Below, piece after piece: positions 57,386 to 64,000 of a DNA stretch of 64,000 nucleotides. This DNA comes from Gammaproteobacteria bacterium (GTDB lineage Bacteria; Pseudomonadota; Gammaproteobacteria; GCA-001735895). The translations under genes were made by a program, and so were the position numbers. Each line of letters opens with the position of its first letter. Positions within the stretch are counted from its first letter, which is position 1. The notes under the pieces were generated by a model. That model made no database searches. It was not told the DNA's origin and worked only from the letters and a program-made list of their open reading frames with translations. Location: contig JAOTXY010000009.1 of NCBI GenBank assembly GCA_029862125.1, forward strand, positions 2,597 through 66,596, written 5' to 3'.

Positions 57386-57559
57386 TATCTATCAGCGGAA
57401 CACGCGAAGCTCCTGCAGATTCCAAATAAAAGCGGACACTCGGTTATTAAGCTTCAGAGTCCGCTGACAATCCAAAACGGACATCGAATATATCCAGGCA
57501 GTTTGTGTCTGGCGTAAATATCCGGTACATAGGTGCGGGGTCGTTTTTGCTAAATCCAC

Positions 57560-58933
57560 TTATCGAATTACGATAAACAACGAACCACCGTTACGATCGA
57601 CTCGAAGCAGGACTGATGTCGTGCTCAGCTTCAATGCAGCTTTTAGCGATTTGATGTCGTATACCTTTCGTTTGTTGGCACCTACTATCACATCACCCTC
57701 ACGTAATCCGCTGTAGGCGGCAGCCGAATTGGGGGCTACCGCAACGACCAGCACCCCTTTGCCATCAGGATTGTTCTCGACGCGCAGCCCTTGTAGAAGC
57801 GGGATTAACTTTTCGACTTGCGCCTGTCGGGATTTAACCTCGCCGACCTTGACTGTCAGCTGCAATGAGTCGCCGTTTCGTAGTATTGTAAGTTGTACTT
57901 TGTCGCCAACTTCCTTGACACCGATTCTACTGCGCAGCTGGGCAGTCGATATGGTCGTTTTACCATCAGCCTCGATGATGATATCACCCAATTTGATTCC
58001 AGCACGGGCAGCAGGAGAGCCTTCAACGACATTGGTCACCAATACCCCGAACTGTCCTTTAGCCAGATCAAAGGCATCCCGAAGCTCGGGGGTTATGTCC
58101 TGGATTCCAACACCAATTTGCCCACGCCTGACTTCGCCATGCTCGATTATCTGTCGCATGCTTACCTTTGCCATGTTTATTGGAATCGCAAACCCAATAC
58201 CAATATTACCCCCCGCAGGCGAGATAATTGCGGTATTGATGCCCACCAGCTCACCCTTTAGATTGACGAGTGCACCCCCAGAGTTACCTGGGTTGATCGA
58301 TGCATCGGTTTGAATAAAATTTTCATATCCCTCGATGCCAAGACCGCTACGCCCGAGTGCACTAACAATGCCGGTGGTTACGGTCTGCCCCAATCCGAAT
58401 GGATTACCGATAGCGACGACGAAATCGCCGACTTCCAGCAGGCTCGAATCAGCAATCCTGGTCTCGGTTAAATCATCGGCATCAATTTCGAGTATCGCGA
58501 TGTCAAGTTCGGGGTCGGTTCCGACTATCTTGGCCTCATAATTCCGGCCGTCGACCAAAGATACGTGCACTTCATCAGCGTTCCTGACAACGTGATAATT
58601 GGTCATCACGATTCCATCACCCGCACTGACAATAACCCCGGAACCAGCACTCTGCTGGCGCTTGCGTGGCACTTGCTGCTCCGGTTGCGATTGATCTGGA
58701 ATATCAAAAAATTTGCGAAAAAAAGGATCATTCAATAATGGGTTGTAGCTGGACTCGCGTGTTGAGTAAGTCGAAATATTAACCACAGCAGGATTGACCT
58801 GCTTGAGCATCGGCGCTAACGAGGGGAAAGGCCTGCCCTGAGCGTCCGTGCCTGGAAGAACAGCCTGTGCCATCTGACAGGTCAGCATGAGCAGTAAAAA
58901 TAAAAATAACGGATGAGTTTGAATTTTTATCAT
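57560..58933 (-). CDS. periplasmic serine endoprotease DegP/DegQ/MucD family (trypsin domain + two PDZ domains)
   Basis: 457 aa. Signal peptide, catalytic triad regions (NYHVV..., DIAILEI, GNSGGALV), two C-terminal PDZ domains. Confidence 0.85.
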   Translation of the reverse strand: MIKIQTHPLFLFLLLMLTCQMAQAVLPGTDAQGRPFPSLAPMLKQVNPAVVNISTYSTRESSYNPLLNDPFFRKFFDIPDQSQPEQQVPRKRQQSAGSGVIVSAGDGIVMTNYHVVRNADEVHVSLVDGRNYEAKIVGTDPELDIAILEIDADDLTETRIADSSLLEVGDFVVAIGNPFGLGQTVTTGIVSALGRSGLGIEGYENFIQTDASINPGNSGGALVNLKGELVGINTAIISPAGGNIGIGFAIPINMAKVSMRQIIEHGEVRRGQIGVGIQDITPELRDAFDLAKGQFGVLVTNVVEGSPAARAGIKLGDIIIEADGKTTISTAQLRSRIGVKEVGDKVQLTILRNGDSLQLTVKVGEVKSRQAQVEKLIPLLQGLRVENNPDGKGVLVVAVAPNSAAAYSGLREGDVIVGANKRKVYDIKSLKAALKLSTTSVLLRVDRNGGSLFIVIR

Positions 58934-59006
58934 TACAATCTCCTATATTTTCAGCAACACCCAAGGGCTGACCAATACAAGGCCAGCCCTGTTCTTCAAT
59001 TATGAT

Positions 59007-59585
59007 CTACGAATTAATTGATATACGTTTTACCTCCTGATTCACGGTTTCACGACGGGGAATTTCAAGTCTCAATACGCCCTTATCAAGGTTAGCCTTG
59101 ATTTCATCAGCTATGGCGTCATCCGGCAGTGCCAGGGTCCGTTGAAATGATCCATAGCTGCGTTCGACACGATAATAATGCTTATCTTTATCTTCACTGC
59201 GCTCCTCCTTCTCCCCCTTAATGAGCAAAACATCATCCTTTAGCTCGAGCGACAGATCGGATTCAGTCAGGCCTGGTACATCGAGGCTGATCTCGTAACA
59301 GTTCGCATCACCCGATACATCAATTTGCGGTCGATAAAAATTTGACAGTCGTGCACCAGGTAAACCCATGGATTCCAGATTTGAAGCCAGCGATGGCATA
59401 CCGAACGACTTGAATGCATCGTCAAACCAGCGATCCATATTACGGTGCAGGCTCATCAGGGAACCTGGGCCCGCCTGTGGCAAGTTTTCAACTTCGCTGC
59501 GGCTAACCGGAATTTGGTTTCCCTTGCCAGCACCATTTTCCTCGTGTTTGAACCAGTTCCAGGGTTTAAGGTTTTCTAAGTTCAT
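59007..59585 (-). CDS. Hsp20/alpha-crystallin family small heat-shock protein
   Basis: 192 aa. Alpha-crystallin domain (DVSGDANCYEISLDVPGLTESDLSLELKDDVLLIKGEK...) and C-terminal I-x-I-like motif. Confidence 0.85.
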   Translation of the reverse strand: MNLENLKPWNWFKHEENGAGKGNQIPVSRSEVENLPQAGPGSLMSLHRNMDRWFDDAFKSFGMPSLASNLESMGLPGARLSNFYRPQIDVSGDANCYEISLDVPGLTESDLSLELKDDVLLIKGEKEERSEDKDKHYYRVERSYGSFQRTLALPDDAIADEIKANLDKGVLRLEIPRRETVNQEVKRISINS

Positions 59586-59652
59586 GTCAGTCTCCTGAAT
59601 AATTGCATATAAATTGGTGCCGCCTCGATAGAACGGCGTTTATCCTCATTTT

Positions 59653-59680
59653 ATTTAAGGTTAAGTAGGCAACTTTCAAG
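59653..59680 (-). promoter_or_regulatory. candidate sigma-32 (RpoH) heat-shock promoter for the hsp20 gene
   Basis: Minus strand reads CTTGAAA-(13 nt)-CCTTAAAT: perfect sigma-32 -35 consensus, partial -10 (CCCCATNT-like), about 65 nt upstream of the hsp20 ATG. Confidence 0.35.
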
Positions 59681-59776
59681 ACAGGGAAATTGACCCAGGT
59701 CAAATTCAAACCATATATCGATCAGTTCCCAAAAGTGGCCGCGTCATACGAGTAAAAATAGCTATTATCTTAATAG

Positions 59777-60304
59777 CTACTTGACGGCGATACAGGTGCA
59801 GGGTGCACGGTTTGCTACCTTGTGCGATACACTGCCAAGGAACAGACCTTTTAAATCGTTTAATCCACGTGAACCCATAATCACGCAGTCAATTTTTTCC
59901 TCATCGATACATTTCAGAATTCTATCGGCGGGATCACCAACTTCGAGACGGGCATCGACATTTTCAATGCCATTTCCCTCTGCAAGGCCTTTTGCTCCGT
60001 CAATGACATGGCGGCCTACCTCGATCAGTAACCGCGGTGATATCCCTGAATCCTGGAAGGCGGAATCCGTAGCCACGGTGATTCTATAGTCCATCGATCT
60101 CAAGCGTTCTATTTCGGTATTGACATGCGGTGCCAGTCCCTCAATTTCAGCAAACTGCTGCAGAGCGTCGATATTTTCAGAACGATGAGGTACGTGCAAT
60201 AGGACAAGCTCCGCATCGTATTTTTTAGCCATATCAATTGCCAGATCGAGTGCTTTGTGTGCATGATCTGAACCGTCGGTGGGACATAGTATCTTGTTAA
60301 ACAT
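59777..60304 (-). CDS. universal stress protein (UspA family)
   Basis: 175 aa. MFNKILCPTDGSDHAHKALDLAIDMAKKYDAELVLLHV ... C-terminal ATP-binding-type motif GSRGLNDLKGLFLGSVSHKV. Confidence 0.8.
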   Translation of the reverse strand: MFNKILCPTDGSDHAHKALDLAIDMAKKYDAELVLLHVPHRSENIDALQQFAEIEGLAPHVNTEIERLRSMDYRITVATDSAFQDSGISPRLLIEVGRHVIDGAKGLAEGNGIENVDARLEVGDPADRILKCIDEEKIDCVIMGSRGLNDLKGLFLGSVSHKVANRAPCTCIAVK

Positions 60305-60405
60305 GATAGGCCTCCGTAATATTCACCAAACCAAAAAAGTCACTTTACCCTGATAGCAATTTGGCATATTGACGCAGCTCAACGAGGATAAATTTATAAG
60401 CAAAT

Positions 60406-60495
60406 GTCCGCTTCTGGCTGAAGATTGCCGCTTGGCGATTACCTACAAGCGTCCGTTCTTGAGAGATGGCAGGCGTAGCGAGTGGTTTGATATTA
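60406..60495. repeat. cassette-associated ~90-bp repeat, copy A
   Basis: gtccgcttctggctgaag...gcgtccgtt...ggcaggcgtagcgagtgg aligns with copies B-D. Its right end overlaps the stop of the DUF4177-like ORF. A GTTGAGC (GTTRRRY) box lies at 60377-60383 on the minus strand. Confidence 0.55.
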
Positions 60496-60684
60496 GTCTA
60501 GTGGCCGAGTTATCTCCTCTGTTTCATCAATCTCTTTTGCGATGACGCTAGTATGGACATGCATACCATCGAATGCATCCGTGCGTCCGGCGCGAGACCA
60601 TCCATTTGATTCATAATAATTGATTTGCTCCTCAAGTTTGGTGATAGATAGGCACCGCAGTACTTTATATTCTATCCTGCTCAT
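60493..60684 (-). CDS. DUF4177-like small protein (63 aa), candidate cassette ORF
   Basis: IEYKVLRCL...LEEQINYYESNGWS resembles the DUF4177 pattern (EYK ... LNxxGxxGWEL). The C-terminal codons lie inside repeat copy A. Confidence 0.4.
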   Translation of the reverse strand: MSRIEYKVLRCLSITKLEEQINYYESNGWSRAGRTDAFDGMHVHTSVIAKEIDETEEITRPLD

Positions 60685-60919
60685 CTGTATCTTGGGTGAT
60701 TATTGATTTTGAAAACCTACCATCTTTGTCGGGTATGGACCTGATTGCGGCTCTTTGGTCACGAAAACATGATATTTTGTTCAGCTTAGAATTGTTGTGA
60801 ACAAGATCAAGCCCAGAGTCACCTATGACAAGTACCTTGTGAATATCTATGACCAGTAATCTAGGAGACTTTCGTAAGCCTCCCCATTATGGCAACAGTT
60901 CAAAACTAAAATTTTAGGC

Positions 60920-60990
60920 GTCTGCTTCTGGCCGTTCTCGGAAGCCTGAATAGCATTTTTCAGCGTCTCCTTTGGAGAAAACAGACGCTC
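60920..60990. repeat. cassette-associated repeat, copy B
   Basis: gtctgcttctggccg...gcctgaat...cagcgtctcctttggagaaaacagacgc aligns with copies C and D. Preceded by TTAGGC (60915-60920). A CGCTAAC box lies at 61150-61156. Confidence 0.55.
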
Positions 60991-61064
60991 AAACCCAAGT
61001 AATCAGCGGCGATTTACGACCCAATATAGATACTCAATCCCGTTCTCGTGGATACTGGTAATAG

Positions 61065-61082
61065 CTGACAGGTAGCTGTCAG
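61065..61082. repeat. perfect 7-bp stem hairpin (CTGACAG-gtag-CTGTCAG) inside the cassette-array spacer
   Basis: Read directly from the sequence. Followed at 61142-61180 by a direct repeat of aactcattcg flanking the CGCTAAC box. Confidence 0.4.
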
Positions 61083-61287
61083 TGCGCGTGAAACATCCAT
61101 TTGCTAGTTACAAATAGAACAGCCCCTACACTTGCAGCGGAAACTCATTCGCTAACATACTTGATGCGAACAACTCATTCGTTTCCTTTTAAATGAAAAT
61201 TTTACTCTTCGCTGTCTTTGTTGAAGTCTTAATTTCGCAAAAACTTATCTATACTTAATTCCTTAAGAGCGAGACCTTGAAATTCGT

Positions 61288-62001
61288 ATGAAGCGCGAGC
61301 TAAGTAACATTAAGGTCTCGATTGAATTAAGTCGAGACCAAATCATTGAGGGATACCTCAATGATGTGACGCCTACGAGTCAAGCGATTTCTGTTGCGAT
61401 ACTCCCAGCTAATCCAGAACTACCGATTCCAGGGACTAATTTAAACCTGCACTTTGAAATTCCTGGGGTAGATCCCCTGGTCCAAATACTCGCGGTGGTT
61501 AAAAAAGCGTGCAAAAAAAGTGGGAAATGTTTTCTCGATCTGGAGGTGATTGACTGGCATGAATTTCATCGCCACTTACCCTCGAATCTTTCCACCAACT
61601 TCAATCGACGGCGCCACTTTCGTGTCAACATGCCACGGCTAAATGAAACTGAAGTCTCGGTGCTGTCGATGCAGAGCGGGCGTTCGCTGAGCGCCACGAT
61701 GCTGGATATCTCTGTAAAAGGCAGCAAATTGTCCTTTGCTTTGGACGAGGCCCCGATTGTCGGCGAAACCCTTCGAATCAAGTTCTGCTTGCCAACGTCC
61801 GAATACCAACTCGAATTGTTGGCAACCGTAACCGGCCGATGGAAGATCAAGAACGCCAGGAATTGTGGCGTTGAATTTAAGGATAACTCACCGGCAGAAG
61901 AGAAACCTTTCTTAGCCCAGCAAAAATTGATATCTCAATACGTCATGGAACGTCAGCGGGAGTTGACCCGAATGGGTATTAAGACCGATTCTCGAGGGTA
62001 G
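61288..62001 (+). CDS. PilZ-domain protein (candidate c-di-GMP receptor), inverted candidate cassette ORF
   Basis: 237 aa. RRRHFRVNM (RxxxR) and DISVKGSKL (D/NxSxxG) motifs about 30 aa apart, as in PilZ domains. N-terminal about 100 aa unknown. Opposite strand to the other array ORFs. Confidence 0.55.
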   Translation: MKRELSNIKVSIELSRDQIIEGYLNDVTPTSQAISVAILPANPELPIPGTNLNLHFEIPGVDPLVQILAVVKKACKKSGKCFLDLEVIDWHEFHRHLPSNLSTNFNRRRHFRVNMPRLNETEVSVLSMQSGRSLSATMLDISVKGSKLSFALDEAPIVGETLRIKFCLPTSEYQLELLATVTGRWKIKNARNCGVEFKDNSPAEEKPFLAQQKLISQYVMERQRELTRMGIKTDSRG

Positions 62002-62252
62002 ATTCAGGTCGGTGAAATCTACAATTATACGATCGACGAATCCTACCTGATCTCAGGTTGTTAATAGACAGTTACACAGTTTTATCTACAGTCTCGCGAA
62101 ACTTGTCAGAATTTCGTAAAACGCTACATTTAGAAAAACCGGGGCAGGCTTAGTGAGCGACTTCCGTTTTCGATATGGACAATTGAGTATTTGATCGATG
62201 GAATGACCGCGACTTCAATCGATTCTCACTGTTAGTCTCCTGTTGATGTCGA

Positions 62253-62341
62253 GGGTCCGTAACTGGCCAAAGATTGCCTCCTGGCTCAGCCAGTTCAGGG
62301 TCTCCTTTGGAGGTAACAGACCTTCGTCATGGAATAATAGT
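62253..62341. repeat. cassette-associated repeat, copy D
   Basis: gggtccgtaactggccaaagattgcctcctg...cagggtctcctttggaggtaacagacc aligns with copies B and C. Preceded by GTTAGTC (62231-62237). GNAT ORF stop lies 24 bp to its right. Confidence 0.55.
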
Positions 62342-62364
62342 GCTCTGAAACTGCCCCAAATTCA

Positions 62365-62964
62365 TTACTCTACTGAACGAATCATCAGCAGGGCATTACC
62401 CTCGTAGTGAATCAACGGATGTGGGACTACTGGTGCTTGGTCCACCACGGTGTATCCCAGCATGTCGTACAGTTTTACAGCTCCCTTGTTCTGTTCAAAT
62501 GCTACCAATGACAAGGTTGTAAATTTGTTTTCCCCGGCTTGCTCGCTGGCTAAATACATTAATCGTGTCCCCAGCCCACGACCGCGATGTTGGGGGTATA
62601 ACGCGACGCCGCATACATACCAACTGTTTGGTTCTTCCAGATAAATGTAAGGTGCGAATACGTTTTCATCATCGGCAGCAGGACGATTTTTCGGATTTCT
62701 CGGTTCGGCCTCAGGCATGCCAAAGGCCAGCAACATACCGGCTACTTCACCATTTATTTCCAGGATAGTTGTATTGTTAAAAGAATAATCCCCATGGGGA
62801 TTTTGATAGGTCTGTTCACCAATGTCGAGTGGGTCACAATGCTCTATCTCGGCTTGTTCATGCCATTCAATTTCGGCAACTCCATCGGATGATATGGCAA
62901 TGAGCTTGGCAATGTCACGGGCATCGTCCCGGGTGGCGGTCCGGATTGCATATTCATGTGACAT
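62365..62964 (-). CDS. GNAT-family N-acetyltransferase, candidate cassette ORF
   Basis: 199 aa. Acetyl-CoA-binding motif region (VALYPQHRGRGLGTRLM) and overall GNAT length. Confidence 0.75.
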   Translation of the reverse strand: MSHEYAIRTATRDDARDIAKLIAISSDGVAEIEWHEQAEIEHCDPLDIGEQTYQNPHGDYSFNNTTILEINGEVAGMLLAFGMPEAEPRNPKNRPAADDENVFAPYIYLEEPNSWYVCGVALYPQHRGRGLGTRLMYLASEQAGENKFTTLSLVAFEQNKGAVKLYDMLGYTVVDQAPVVPHPLIHYEGNALLMIRSVE

Positions 62965-63009
62965 ATCAATTAACTTTGAAAAAAATATTGATTCAGATTA
63001 CCTATATTT

Positions 63010-63217
63010 CGCTAACACATGCGAGATACAGGATAACACCCCAGAGCATATAAAGAATTAACTCATGCTCCTTTGAATCGGTGAATATCGAATCACGACA
63101 TCTGCAAGGGTCCGCTTCTGGCCGAAGGTCGCCTCCTGAATTTCGCTTATGAGCGTCCGTTATCGGGAAGTTGGCAGCGCAGCGCGTGGCCTAGTCCGAC
63201 TGCATGGATTGTTAGGC
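63010..63217 (-). repeat. long (208-bp) attC-like element: CGCTAAC ... repeat core (63108-63205) ... GTTAGGC
   Basis: Terminal 7-mers are near-perfect inverted repeats matching the integron R''/R' consensus (RYYYAAC/GTTRRRY). Inner boxes catgcgag / ctgcatgg are complementary apart from one extra base. On the minus strand the upstream ORF's TGA stop lies 3 bp from GCCTAAC. Confidence 0.5.
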
Positions 63218-63220
63218 CTT

Positions 63221-63718
63221 TCACTCAATTATCTCTATTGATTCAAGGATGCTGCTTACGATGCTCTCACTTGTTCCCGTGAAAGGCCAATGTGAAACAT
63301 GAAGATCTATACAAATACCATCCTTTGCAAAATATGCATGGCCATTTGCCGTTTTGAAAGCTTGACCTTTATATTCTCCTCCAGATTGATGTGTGGCGTA
63401 GTATGCTTTAGTGTCATTTCGGGTTTTAATAGTGGATTTAACCATCACCGGGTTTGCTTGAGCTTTGGCCCAGAAAGCTTTGAAGCATTCCTCATTGTTA
63501 CTCGATGTCTCAATTTCACTGTTAACACTTATCGTAACTCCTGTTTCAACGCTAGATCCCAAGTATCGAATAATCCTATTTCTAGTTTTCATTTCAATAT
63601 TTGTAATCGGAGGTGTCTCTAGCTTCAATGTCCAGTTTTCATTTGGCATGGTAATGTAGGTTTCTTCCGCATTTGCGACGGGGGATAAAACCAACGCCAG
63701 TACAAATAGCAATCTCAT
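63221..63718 (-). CDS. secreted hypothetical protein, candidate cassette ORF
   Basis: 165 aa. Signal peptide MRLLFVLALVLSPVANA; no family recognised. Start preceded by GAGGAAAT 7 bp upstream and directly by a GTTAGGC box. Confidence 0.45.
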   Translation of the reverse strand: MRLLFVLALVLSPVANAEETYITMPNENWTLKLETPPITNIEMKTRNRIIRYLGSSVETGVTISVNSEIETSSNNEECFKAFWAKAQANPVMVKSTIKTRNDTKAYYATHQSGGEYKGQAFKTANGHAYFAKDGICIDLHVSHWPFTGTSESIVSSILESIEIIE

Positions 63719-63734
63719 GGGTATTTCCTCGTGG

Positions 63735-63795
63735 GCCTAACGCCTCGCATCAGCGGTTTGCCGTAGGCAGGTCCGACTGCATGCGCTTGTTATGT
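63735..63795 (-). repeat. 61-bp attC-like recombination site candidate
   Basis: Plus strand: GCCTAAC-gcctc-GCATCAG-(23 nt loop)-CTGCATGC-gctt-GTTATGT, i.e. R''-spacer-L''-loop-L'-spacer-R' with L''/L' complementary except for one extra base. The 3' 25 nt match copy C (gtccgactgcatg..GTTAgG). Confidence 0.55.
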
Positions 63796-63799
63796 GCAT

Positions 63800-64000
63800 T
63801 CAGCTGTTTGGTGAATTTGCACATTTTTCTTTCCCTTCTGAGAATGAGTGTTCCAGTAAGTTAATTTCAAGAACACTGTCTTCCTGTTCGACTCCAGACA
63901 AACAGAACTTGATCTGGTATCTGCCTGTCCACTCTGACCTTATATTTTCTGCAGTTATACCGCCATCATTTGAAATTTTTGTGGTAACGACATGATTTCG
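63800..64000 (-). CDS. 3' end of an ORF that starts beyond the window (candidate next cassette ORF)
   Basis: Minus-strand frame open from 64000 to the TGA at 63800-63802 (…EINLLEHSFSEGKEKCANSPNS*). The stop is 4 bp from the ACATAAC box of the attC-like element. No start codon within the window. Confidence 0.3.
   Translation of the reverse strand, partial: RNHVVTTKISNDGGITAENIRSEWTGRYQIKFCLSGVEQEDSVLEINLLEHSFSEGKEKCANSPNS

Follow-up and report, generated by a model that had tools for sequence, protein, structure and literature searches.

The right-hand end of a 64 kb stretch of DNA, here called the window, which was taken from a contig of the metagenome-assembled genome (MAG) of an uncultured sediment gammaproteobacterium, carries short gene units at positions 60377-64000 and is the distal end of an integron-type array, reading on the minus strand from an attI-like site towards the gene uspA. 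We slightly favour the view that this array is integron-derived, that most of its junctions hold a distinct conserved element, designated X, and that units are exchanged there at the sequence CGGCCA|NNNN, where the bar denotes the exchange point. X marks the unit boundaries, its copies are oriented in the same direction as one another and as attC, and the change between shared and unshared sequence falls at CGGCCA|NNNN in at least five independent comparisons of contigs. As to mechanism, two readings compete: X may serve as a site of cassette recombination, or it may be a selfish repeat inserted in a targeted manner.

The X Element

A sequence-only covariance model built from 76 aligned repeat cores (model R1) and run against the window with filters off gave exactly four matches, copies A to D, all on the minus strand and all within 60399-63182, with E-values from 3e-11 to 5e-20 (Table 1). 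The next best match outside this segment had an E-value of 0.4, and positions 1-60300 contain no copy of X. The 14-mer GTCYGCTTCTGGCC, with 0-1 mismatches, occurs in the window only at 60406, 60920 and 63110. A same-strand repeat family of about 90 bp had been proposed in an earlier note on this DNA, and the family is real; the four copies were correctly placed, except that copy B runs further to the right, to about 61045. The similarity that had led to a fifth, partial copy being proposed at 63771-63795 is also genuine, since GGTCCGACTGCATG matches 63193-63206, but that sequence is the L'' arm of an attC site and does not belong to the repeat family.

The right half of X covers about 85 nt and consists of CTCCAAAGSAGAC, a variable segment and GGC.ATCTTCGGCCA-NNNN-CGGAC, while the full consensus in the array direction is (CTGAGCGTCYGCTTT-GGGTCGTWRATCGCCGCTGATT-n8-TTGAGCGTCTGYTTT)-CTCCAAAGSAGACGCTSAA-n11-GGGAGGCAATCTTCGGCCA-NNNN-CGGAC-RCTCAG. 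Opposite-strand matching and alignments identify the bracketed left part as an inverted and diverged copy of the right part, and the resulting long form, of about 150-170 nt, is an imperfect palindrome exemplified by copies B and C; for copy B the inverted left arm is seen as a weak opposite-strand R1 match at 60978-61019. In a second, hybrid form the R''-L'' half of an attC, of the E-type described below, takes the place of the left part. Copy D is of this kind, its attC left half, GCCTAAC-AATCCATGCAGTCGGAC, lying at 63193-63217 with a perfect R'' box (GCCTAAC) 3 nt past the open reading frame (ORF) stop and an L'' arm in common with the true attC, and copy A is a degenerate example. The GGCCA motif corresponds to plus-strand positions 60929-60933 in copy B, 62264-62268 in copy C and 63119-63123 in copy D, and in copy A the sequence AGCCA-GAAG-CGGAC occupies plus-strand positions 60406-60419. 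Hybrids of attC-left and X-right halves were also found in L067, L049, L047, L039, L044, L065 and L164 (L numbers denote the contigs compared), and for one cassette the site is a full attC in L052, whereas L164 has an attC-left/X-right hybrid there. Most copies of X are long forms that lack any attC part.

A scan with the pattern CTCCAAAG-NN-GAC-N31-GGCCA-NNNN-CRGAC, using one genome per species, yielded 72 loci, nearly all from MAGs of uncultured Gammaproteobacteria of sediments and similar habitats, in which R1 recognised 207 copies of X (431 kb searched). Neighbouring strong matches are co-oriented in 77 of 79 cases (97%) and opposed in two, and wherever X and E-type attC sites are both present they have the same orientation, X being about 14 times as frequent in the MAG loci (a ratio of ~14:1). 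The 79 inter-X segments carry one ORF in 51 cases and two in 20, with a median ORF length of 231 amino acids, a maximum of about 1,100 and a median spacing of 1.2 kb. Their genes are accessory in flavour and include those for cyclase-TPR proteins, methyltransferases, LysR regulators, racemases, GFA proteins and hydrolases. Many X arrays occur per genome and, on contigs longer than 17 kb, the X block is the first or last block in about 27 of 30; this placement at contig ends, together with the lack of X among 60 kb of core genes in the window, points to discrete arrays and not to genome-wide scatter. Thus, the alternative raised in the earlier note, a repeat family of the miniature inverted-repeat transposable element (MITE) or repetitive extragenic palindrome (REP) type, was right in that the family is widespread but not in that its members would be scattered, because they form co-oriented arrays. 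Two short repeats, Y (GATAATATGTTATCAGGTCA) and Z (CGCACAATCAAATTCACGAACTACACTTT), as well as extra attI-like copies, often lie downstream of X. Y resembles the TTATCAGGTC arm of attI. A description of X was not found in the literature searched, although such an absence is no proof of novelty.

Exchange of Units at CGGCCA

The exchange point emerged from contigs that share part of the array with the window or with one another. Contig L001 matches the window from 64000 down to 60929 at 99.97% identity and diverges immediately after the GGCCA of copy B into an FKBP gene, which in sample ERZ28013244 stands after copy B in place of the unit with the 63-amino-acid ORF. Contig L007 shares window positions 63137-62255 at 98.9% identity, and both ends of this stretch fall inside copies of X. 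At copy D, identity begins within CTTCGGCCAG of the upstream X, the remainder of which differs (long form in L007, hybrid in the window), and at copy C it stops at GGCCAG of the downstream X, such that the GNAT acetyltransferase unit and its downstream copy of X recur in a different context. The GTTAGCG box at 63010-63016 lies within the shared stretch and is therefore not the exchange point there. For L035 and L048 sharing begins at TTCGGCCA, for L044 and L068 it stops at CTTCGGCCA|, and three further contig pairs are compatible with a junction at CGGCCA, albeit blurred.

For a gene that occurs in two contexts, sharing extends from just past one CGGCCA to the next CGGCCA, and these junction positions define the travelling unit as NNNN-CGGAC, the gene or genes, and the following X up to its CGGCCA. 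Polymorphism of ORF-plus-repeat units between samples, which had been anticipated, is thereby borne out by L001 and L007 relative to the window, but the unit boundary of X is not at G|TTRRRY as had been supposed. Cassettes with E-type attC sites switch at G|TTA instead (L173/L189, L126/L195 and L052/L164). In permutation tests the sequences on either side of GGCCA are statistically independent, which is consistent with units reassorting at that point, and the left and right halves of X are likewise independent of each other (inner arms, p=0.89).

Two further models were set aside. A conserved compensating hairpin was dropped because all tests of covariation and linkage, including linkage of the end boxes within one cassette and of the bases flanking GGCCA, remained at permutation level. 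A "mobile insertion cassette" model, which pairs the right half of the upstream X with the left half of the downstream X, gave a weak signal (p=0.085) and is contradicted by the GNAT unit, for which the upstream X is not the same in the window and in L007 but the downstream X is conserved.

X as Recombination Site or Selfish Repeat

If X acts in exchange, breakage and joining would be site-specific at CGGCCA|NNNN, with X as the place where units of one or a few genes are traded. The topology would be that of attC, with a crossover close to the 3' terminus of the site, whose tail would move with the next unit, and the acting enzyme would probably not be IntI operating at attI. We tentatively put forward, as a possibility in which our confidence is limited, that X represents a previously undescribed class of gene-cassette recombination site, palindromic and about 85-170 nt long with its crossover at CGGCCA|NNNN, served either by a non-canonical recombinase or by an IS30-type transposase in a site-specific mode, and that it builds large one-directional arrays of single genes and has partly overwritten the attC sites of chromosomal integrons in sediment Gammaproteobacteria. 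Partial overwriting of this kind would explain the attC-left/X-right hybrids.

Several observations weigh against X being a dedicated exchange site. Clear junctions are few (n=5), and some junctions fall elsewhere in X, at its centre (L035/L048) or in the variable part (L034/L069 and L012/L073). The arrays proximal to intI (L207-L214) contain only E-type attC sites and no X, so that capture of X units at attI has not been seen, which argues against IntI inserting them there. Among the inter-X genes, 63 (59%) are co-directional with the array and 44 (41%) opposed, unlike the promoterless cassettes of integrons, as which the units had been read in the earlier note. RNAalifold gave no consensus structure for the 76 aligned X cores, and covariation was at permutation level both between arms (p=0.89) and between the end boxes within one X (p=0.67). 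Searches for an enzyme were also negative: tblastn with IntI1 found no recombinase in the 72 X loci or in the window, all-against-all clustering of the ORFs of the X loci showed that only signalling proteins, methyltransferases and LysR regulators recur, and a Pfam survey of 148 of these ORFs listed their 25 most frequent families, none of them a recombinase. Lastly, GG|CC is the insertion point of both an IS30-like insertion sequence (IS) and a MITE.

The insertions concerned are well defined. In L019 (860-2100) an IS30-like IS, with its transposase and inverted repeats (IRs) of the type TTCAATTGGTCGACGCAAC, is located exactly in the middle of the palindrome GGGTCCGCTGTTGGC|GCCAGAAGCGGACACC, and both flanks read GCCA-NNNN-CGGAC in inverted orientation. 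At positions 1-160 of L001, about 1.1 kb to the right of the window, the C-terminus of an IS30-like transposase and an IR ending in TTCAATTGGTCGACGCAAC abut CCATAAGCGGAC. A MITE of about 260 nt with perfect 21-nt terminal inverted repeats (TCTATTCTGTTGAAAAACTCG) splits a copy of X at CGG|CCA in L023 (3120-3390, minus strand). Since the IS30-like IS and the MITE use the same GG|CC, the X junctions could be footprints of transposition and not the work of a dedicated recombinase.

The strongest competing explanation, which we nevertheless consider rather unlikely, builds on this and takes X to be a selfish, non-autonomous repeat of the MITE/REP type. The two end boxes of X, CTGAGCGTCYGCTTTGGGTCG and CGGCCANNNNCGGACGCTCAG, are inverted with respect to each other at the consensus level and together make up a palindrome, S, of about 30 bp (GTCCGCTT.GG|CC.AAGCGGAC); the long form of X would then be S carrying a palindromic insert of about 125 nt at GG|CC, the centre of S would be a favoured target of IS30-type elements, and elements would pile up at the junctions of cassettes and genes. 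The apparent exchange point would be the end of the insert, and the joints would arise from transposase-mediated adjacent deletion or from recombination between copies. An uninterrupted S is present in a few non-gammaproteobacterial MAG matches (Alphaproteobacteria, Pseudolabrys and Poribacteria), which indicates that the motif family is much wider than the gammaproteobacterial X arrays. Simple palindromes of the form GTCCGCTT.GGGCCA.AAGCGGAC occur at L010 485, L072 1684 and 5898, and L070 1390. IS30 has a documented preference for nearly palindromic hot spots and for its own IRs, which it joins strictly as IRL-IRR or head-to-tail (PMC9333248), and REPs are documented IS targets (PMC1525189). 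The lack of both covariation and a linked recombinase also fits a selfish repeat.

Other features of X are less easily accommodated by such a repeat. A palindromic target should yield both orientations, yet neighbouring copies are co-oriented by 77 to 2, and all five clear junctions lie at the right end of the insert and none at the left, where simple insertion and excision would predict both. The lack of X in 60 kb of core genome and its placement at contig ends in MAGs speak against free spread. The termini of the inserted part are unlike the IRs of IS30-like elements, a target-site duplication could not be defined and an empty site was not found for X, and only 2 of about 75 X loci contain an IS30-like transposase.

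X and the attC Sites of the Integron

The window contains one true attC, of a type that we term E-type. It was recognised by a covariance model (R2) built from 51 members of one E-type family, distinct from the model of IntegronFinder, and R2 found nothing comparable elsewhere in the window. As DNA the site folds into a bulged hairpin in which CGCAT[G]CAG[T]CGG pairs with CCGCTGATGCG. The motif GCAGTCGGAC...GATGCGAGGCGTTA of this type recurs in the MAG loci and in at least 119 contigs of a metagenome scan, and the alignment (n=51) shows the order R''-spacer-L'' with two bulged bases-variable stem-L'-spacer-R', with an R box of TAAC/GTTA, unpaired spacers and a terminal stem that varies in both sequence and length. 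On the top, coding-direction strand the L box has G and T as its extrahelical bases, corresponding to C and A on the bottom strand. In the attC sites of class 1 integrons and in the Vibrio cholerae repeats (VCR), G and T are extrahelical on the recombining bottom strand. The geometry of the E-type site is therefore canonical, with a longer 5' arm, and the identity of the extrahelical bases is swapped.

Searches with IntI1 (tblastn) detected homologues with 44-48% identity beside E-type attC sites in L191, L104, L185, L127, L143 and L086. In all six intI is divergent from the array, and in every intI-bearing contig examined an E-type attC adjoins intI and reads away from it. The L191 protein scores 439 bits against the integron integrase model TIGR02249 (cutoff 265), and its homologues occupy a conserved chromosomal locus with the order array <- attI - intI - esterase - argH - lytST - hemCDXY. 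In nine of the ten contigs L205-L214 a conserved attI (…TTATCAGGTC.ACCTGATAATATGTATTAAAAGGTCAAAGACCTTTTAAATAGGCT-G|TTAGRG) precedes intI by about 200 nt, the exception being L206, which begins 273 nt before intI, and this attI is also present in L191. In L205-L214 hemCDXY is followed by methyltransferase, GFA and sulfatase genes, and the proximal cassettes vary between samples, a ccdAB toxin-antitoxin pair being found in L208 and L210.

To the right of the window, overlapping contigs L001-L003 reveal an attI-like site, ACCTGCTAACATCTATTAAAAGGTCAAAGACCTTATAACCCTGCT-G|TTATGT, about 230 nt beyond its end (~64230; ~890-950 in L001), which is a diverged copy of the intI-adjacent attI and lies directly upstream of the lipoprotein-like ORF, the first cassette past it. 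The earlier proposal of an integron-type array on the minus strand with attI to the right thus holds, given this site and the attC at 63733-63797. It had also placed intI to the right, which is not supported: tblastn with IntI1 found no intI in the window or in L001-L008, which extend to about 1.2 kb beyond. Past the attI-like site, L001 continues with a further copy of X, an ORF of 111 amino acids on the opposite strand and the end of the IS30-like element, and within the window and this 1.2 kb there is a single full attC, together with one attC left half. The gene for intI is probably in the same genome as the window, on a separate contig, to judge from sequence matches: the DegQ and HSP20 proteins of the window are MDH3630185/6 at NCBI (67.7-kb contig), while an integron integrase, P0076 (MDH3633066.1), is encoded at the end of a 354-kb contig with five E-type attC sites running off its end, and this IntI is also found in sample ERZ28013244, which holds L001 and window-like contigs. 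The end of the intI contig (L213/L214) showed no overlap with the window-side contigs.

Elsewhere, attI-like sequences occur inside arrays directly downstream of X, at ~890-950 in L001, ~2950-3060 in L023, ~4860-5010 in L039 and ~1990-2130 in L044, with short versions at ~4740-4790 in L047 and ~190-240 in L052; they are often preceded by Z or Y and none has an adjacent intI. Truncated attC sites, whose left half (...GCATGCAG) runs straight into the beginning of the next cassette, were seen at ~880-900 in L143 and ~2090-2110 in L158, and the cassettes that follow them follow complete attC sites in L116 and L171.

Judged by their sequences, the four repeats of about 90 bp in the window are not attC sites, as the earlier note had taken them to be. 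R2, a model of one attC family and not that of IntegronFinder, gave no match to copies A, B and C and only 14 bits (E=0.23, 63145-63219) to copy D, running through its attC left half alone, and the repeats have no consistent R boxes. GTTRRRY occurs within 150 nt downstream of X in 24 of 127 copies, relative to about 15 expected by chance, and shows no positional peak; X being embedded in a longer attC is likewise ruled out, GTTRRRY not being positioned after it. We therefore regard it as highly improbable that a single chromosomal integron accounts for all five repeats as attC sites that have R boxes (RYYYAAC/GTTRRRY) as their boundaries and are recombined by IntI at G|TT. This reading can draw on the perfect R'' and the L'' arm that copy D shares with the true attC, on X being co-oriented with attC and standing where attC would be expected, on cores of the attI type (...GCT-G|TTA) after some copies (L047, L052 and L001) and on the switching at G|TTA of cassettes preceded by such cores (L052/L164). 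Against this, R2 matches only 63733-63797 in full, the window and L007 place the boundary of the GNAT unit at a CGGCCA that precedes the GTTAGCG box by about 100 nt, and X is lacking from the intI-proximal arrays. The 7-mers put forward as R boxes are present at the coordinates given, GCCTAAC at 63735 being R' of the true attC (minus strand) and GTTAGGC at 63211 being R'' of the attC left half of copy D, but the remainder have no supported role; CGCTAAC (61150-61156) and GTTGAGC (60377-60383, minus strand) are tied to no junction or model and are most simply chance matches.

Least probable of all, and barely credible, is that X is a transcribed RNA element (a terminator, 3'-untranslated-region stabiliser or leader) belonging to each gene and without a role in DNA rearrangement, for although its centre, TCTCC-AAA-GGAGA, can make a small hairpin, single copies fold as long imperfect hairpins and X is intergenic and directly past stop codons in the window, its orientation is independent of the flanking genes (63 co-directional as against 44 opposite, with X itself at 77:2), neither a consensus structure nor covariation was found, there is no T-run, an Rfam cmscan of both strands of 58000-64000 returned no match at E<=10, and units reassort at a fixed point inside X.

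Genes and Boundaries of the Array

The features of the array and its boundary are listed in Table 1. The first core gene beyond the array, uspA, marks its distal boundary, and past this gene the GC content falls from 0.530 (1-59776) to 0.445 (60305-64000), in agreement with the AT-richness remarked on earlier. Contigs L081 and L082 share the uspA-hsp20-degQ flank with the window. In L081 (386-6913, overlapping window ~57500-60700) the uspA-hsp20-degQ module is present as a tandem pair, its copies about 95% identical, with a CBS-domain gene between them.

Table 1. Features of the array end and its flank in the window (aa, amino acids).
Feature	Position	Strand	Evidence
uspA, universal stress protein, 175 aa	59777-60304	-	Pfam PF00582 (Usp), E=1e-31
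X copy A, hybrid/short form: degenerate attC-like left part and conserved X right half	60377-60530	-	R1 60399-60475, 38.6 bits, E=3e-11
Cassette ORF, 63 aa, no recognisable family	60493-60684	-	ORF list
X copy B, long form: inverted left arm and right half	60906-61045	-	R1 60912-60997, 67 bits, E=5e-20
PilZ-domain protein, 237 aa, against array direction	61288-62001	+	Pfam PF07238, E=8e-10
X copy C, diverged long form; left end overlaps GNAT stop codon	62241-62370	-	R1 62248-62333, 58.8 bits, E=2e-17
GNAT acetyltransferase cassette, 199 aa	62365-62964	-	Pfam PF00583, E=5e-14
GTTAGCG, possible degenerate R'/attI-type core ahead of GNAT ORF	63010-63016	-	Sequence
X copy D, hybrid: attC left half and X right half (63103-63182)	63100-63217	-	R1 63103-63182, 46 bits, E=2e-13
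Cassette ORF, 165 aa, signal-peptide-like N-terminus	63221-63718	-	ORF list
attC, E-type: ACATAAC-AAG-CGCAT[G]CAG[T]CGG-loop-CCGCTGATGCG-AGGC-GTTAGGC	63733-63797	-	R2, 69.1 bits, E=3e-18
Lipoprotein-like ORF (134 aa), 3' part only; stop 63800-63802, coding from 63803	63800-64000	-	Translation; full ORF in L001/L003

Exactly one ORF separates each pair of consecutive repeat copies, and on this point the ORF list and the earlier description agree. The 63-amino-acid ORF, which had been described as DUF4177-like, gave no Pfam match at E<=10, and a Pfam search with the 165-amino-acid ORF yielded no significant family; at the start of the latter, 16 nt with a Shine-Dalgarno sequence separate an upstream GTTAGGC from the ATG.

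Significance

Integrons are the textbook system for the capture and shuffling of single genes, and they are found in genomes by way of attC and intI. The lineage studied here, which is abundant in marine and estuarine sediment metagenomes, has a normal integron that comprises intI, attI and attC sites of one homogeneous family. The element that separates most of the lineage's accessory genes organised in arrays, however, is X, which fails the attC-family model R2. If X proved to be a working recombination site, a second gene-cassette system would coexist and hybridise with the integron, and a substantial pool of sediment cassettes could escape surveys based on attC. If it were a targeted selfish repeat, it would show how attC sites are replaced and cassettes possibly immobilised in sedentary integrons. 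On either reading, CGGCCA|NNNN provides a concrete, testable sequence, together with a set of natural recombinant junctions.

Comparison with Known Systems

The closest parallels are with sedentary chromosomal integrons, such as the VCR arrays of Vibrio, and with clusters of attC sites lacking integrases (CALINs), which also consist of co-oriented single-gene units at a fixed chromosomal site. Shared properties include a homogeneous attC family (here the E-type), in which the R box is accompanied by an L box with two bulged bases and by a terminal stem that varies, polymorphism in the presence or absence of units, and a GC content below that of the core genome; as in sedentary chromosomal integrons, the intI of this clade points away from the array, and it has attI about 200 nt upstream. 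In contrast, attC is present at only one of five junctions in the window and there is no intI within about 1.2 kb of the attI-like site, while X lacks RYYYAAC/GTTRRRY and exchanges at CGGCCA|NNNN. The genes of X arrays are also larger (median 231 amino acids) and 41% of them reversed, and there are many X arrays per genome.

Elements of the IS1111-attC group and group IIC-attC introns target attC in one orientation and can leave it split. Their fixed orientation relative to the array and the split attC recall the attC-left/X-right hybrids, but X lacks coding capacity, intron domains (Rfam negative) and ends of the IS110 type, the right half of attC is not found downstream of X in most hybrids, and the long forms lack any attC part.

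IS30 transposition offers a likeness in the IS30-like IS at the centre of an X-type palindrome in L019, and at the same point in L001, and head-to-tail joints targeted to IRs could produce co-oriented arrays (PMC9333248). It differs in that the termini of X do not resemble the IRs of the IS30-like element, no 2-bp duplication was identified, the transposase is present at 2 of about 75 X loci and the moving X unit is bounded by only one kind of end.

Among dispersed repeats, REPs and their bacterial interspersed mosaic elements (BIMEs) and the enterobacterial repetitive intergenic consensus (ERIC) sequences resemble X as imperfect palindromes of 30-170 nt that are exclusively intergenic, form mosaics with short repeats (here Y and Z) and serve as IS targets (PMC1525189). 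X is distinguished from them by its confinement to arrays, with no copies in 60 kb of core genome, by its 97% co-orientation and by the reassortment of flanking genes at a fixed point.

The pdif modules of Acinetobacter plasmids consist of genes flanked by XerC/D sites of 28 bp with an 11-6-11 layout and alternating orientation. Like X units, they are small gene modules that lie between short recombination sites and occur in different contexts, whereas X is about 85-170 nt long, has all its copies in direct orientation and lacks dif-like arms.

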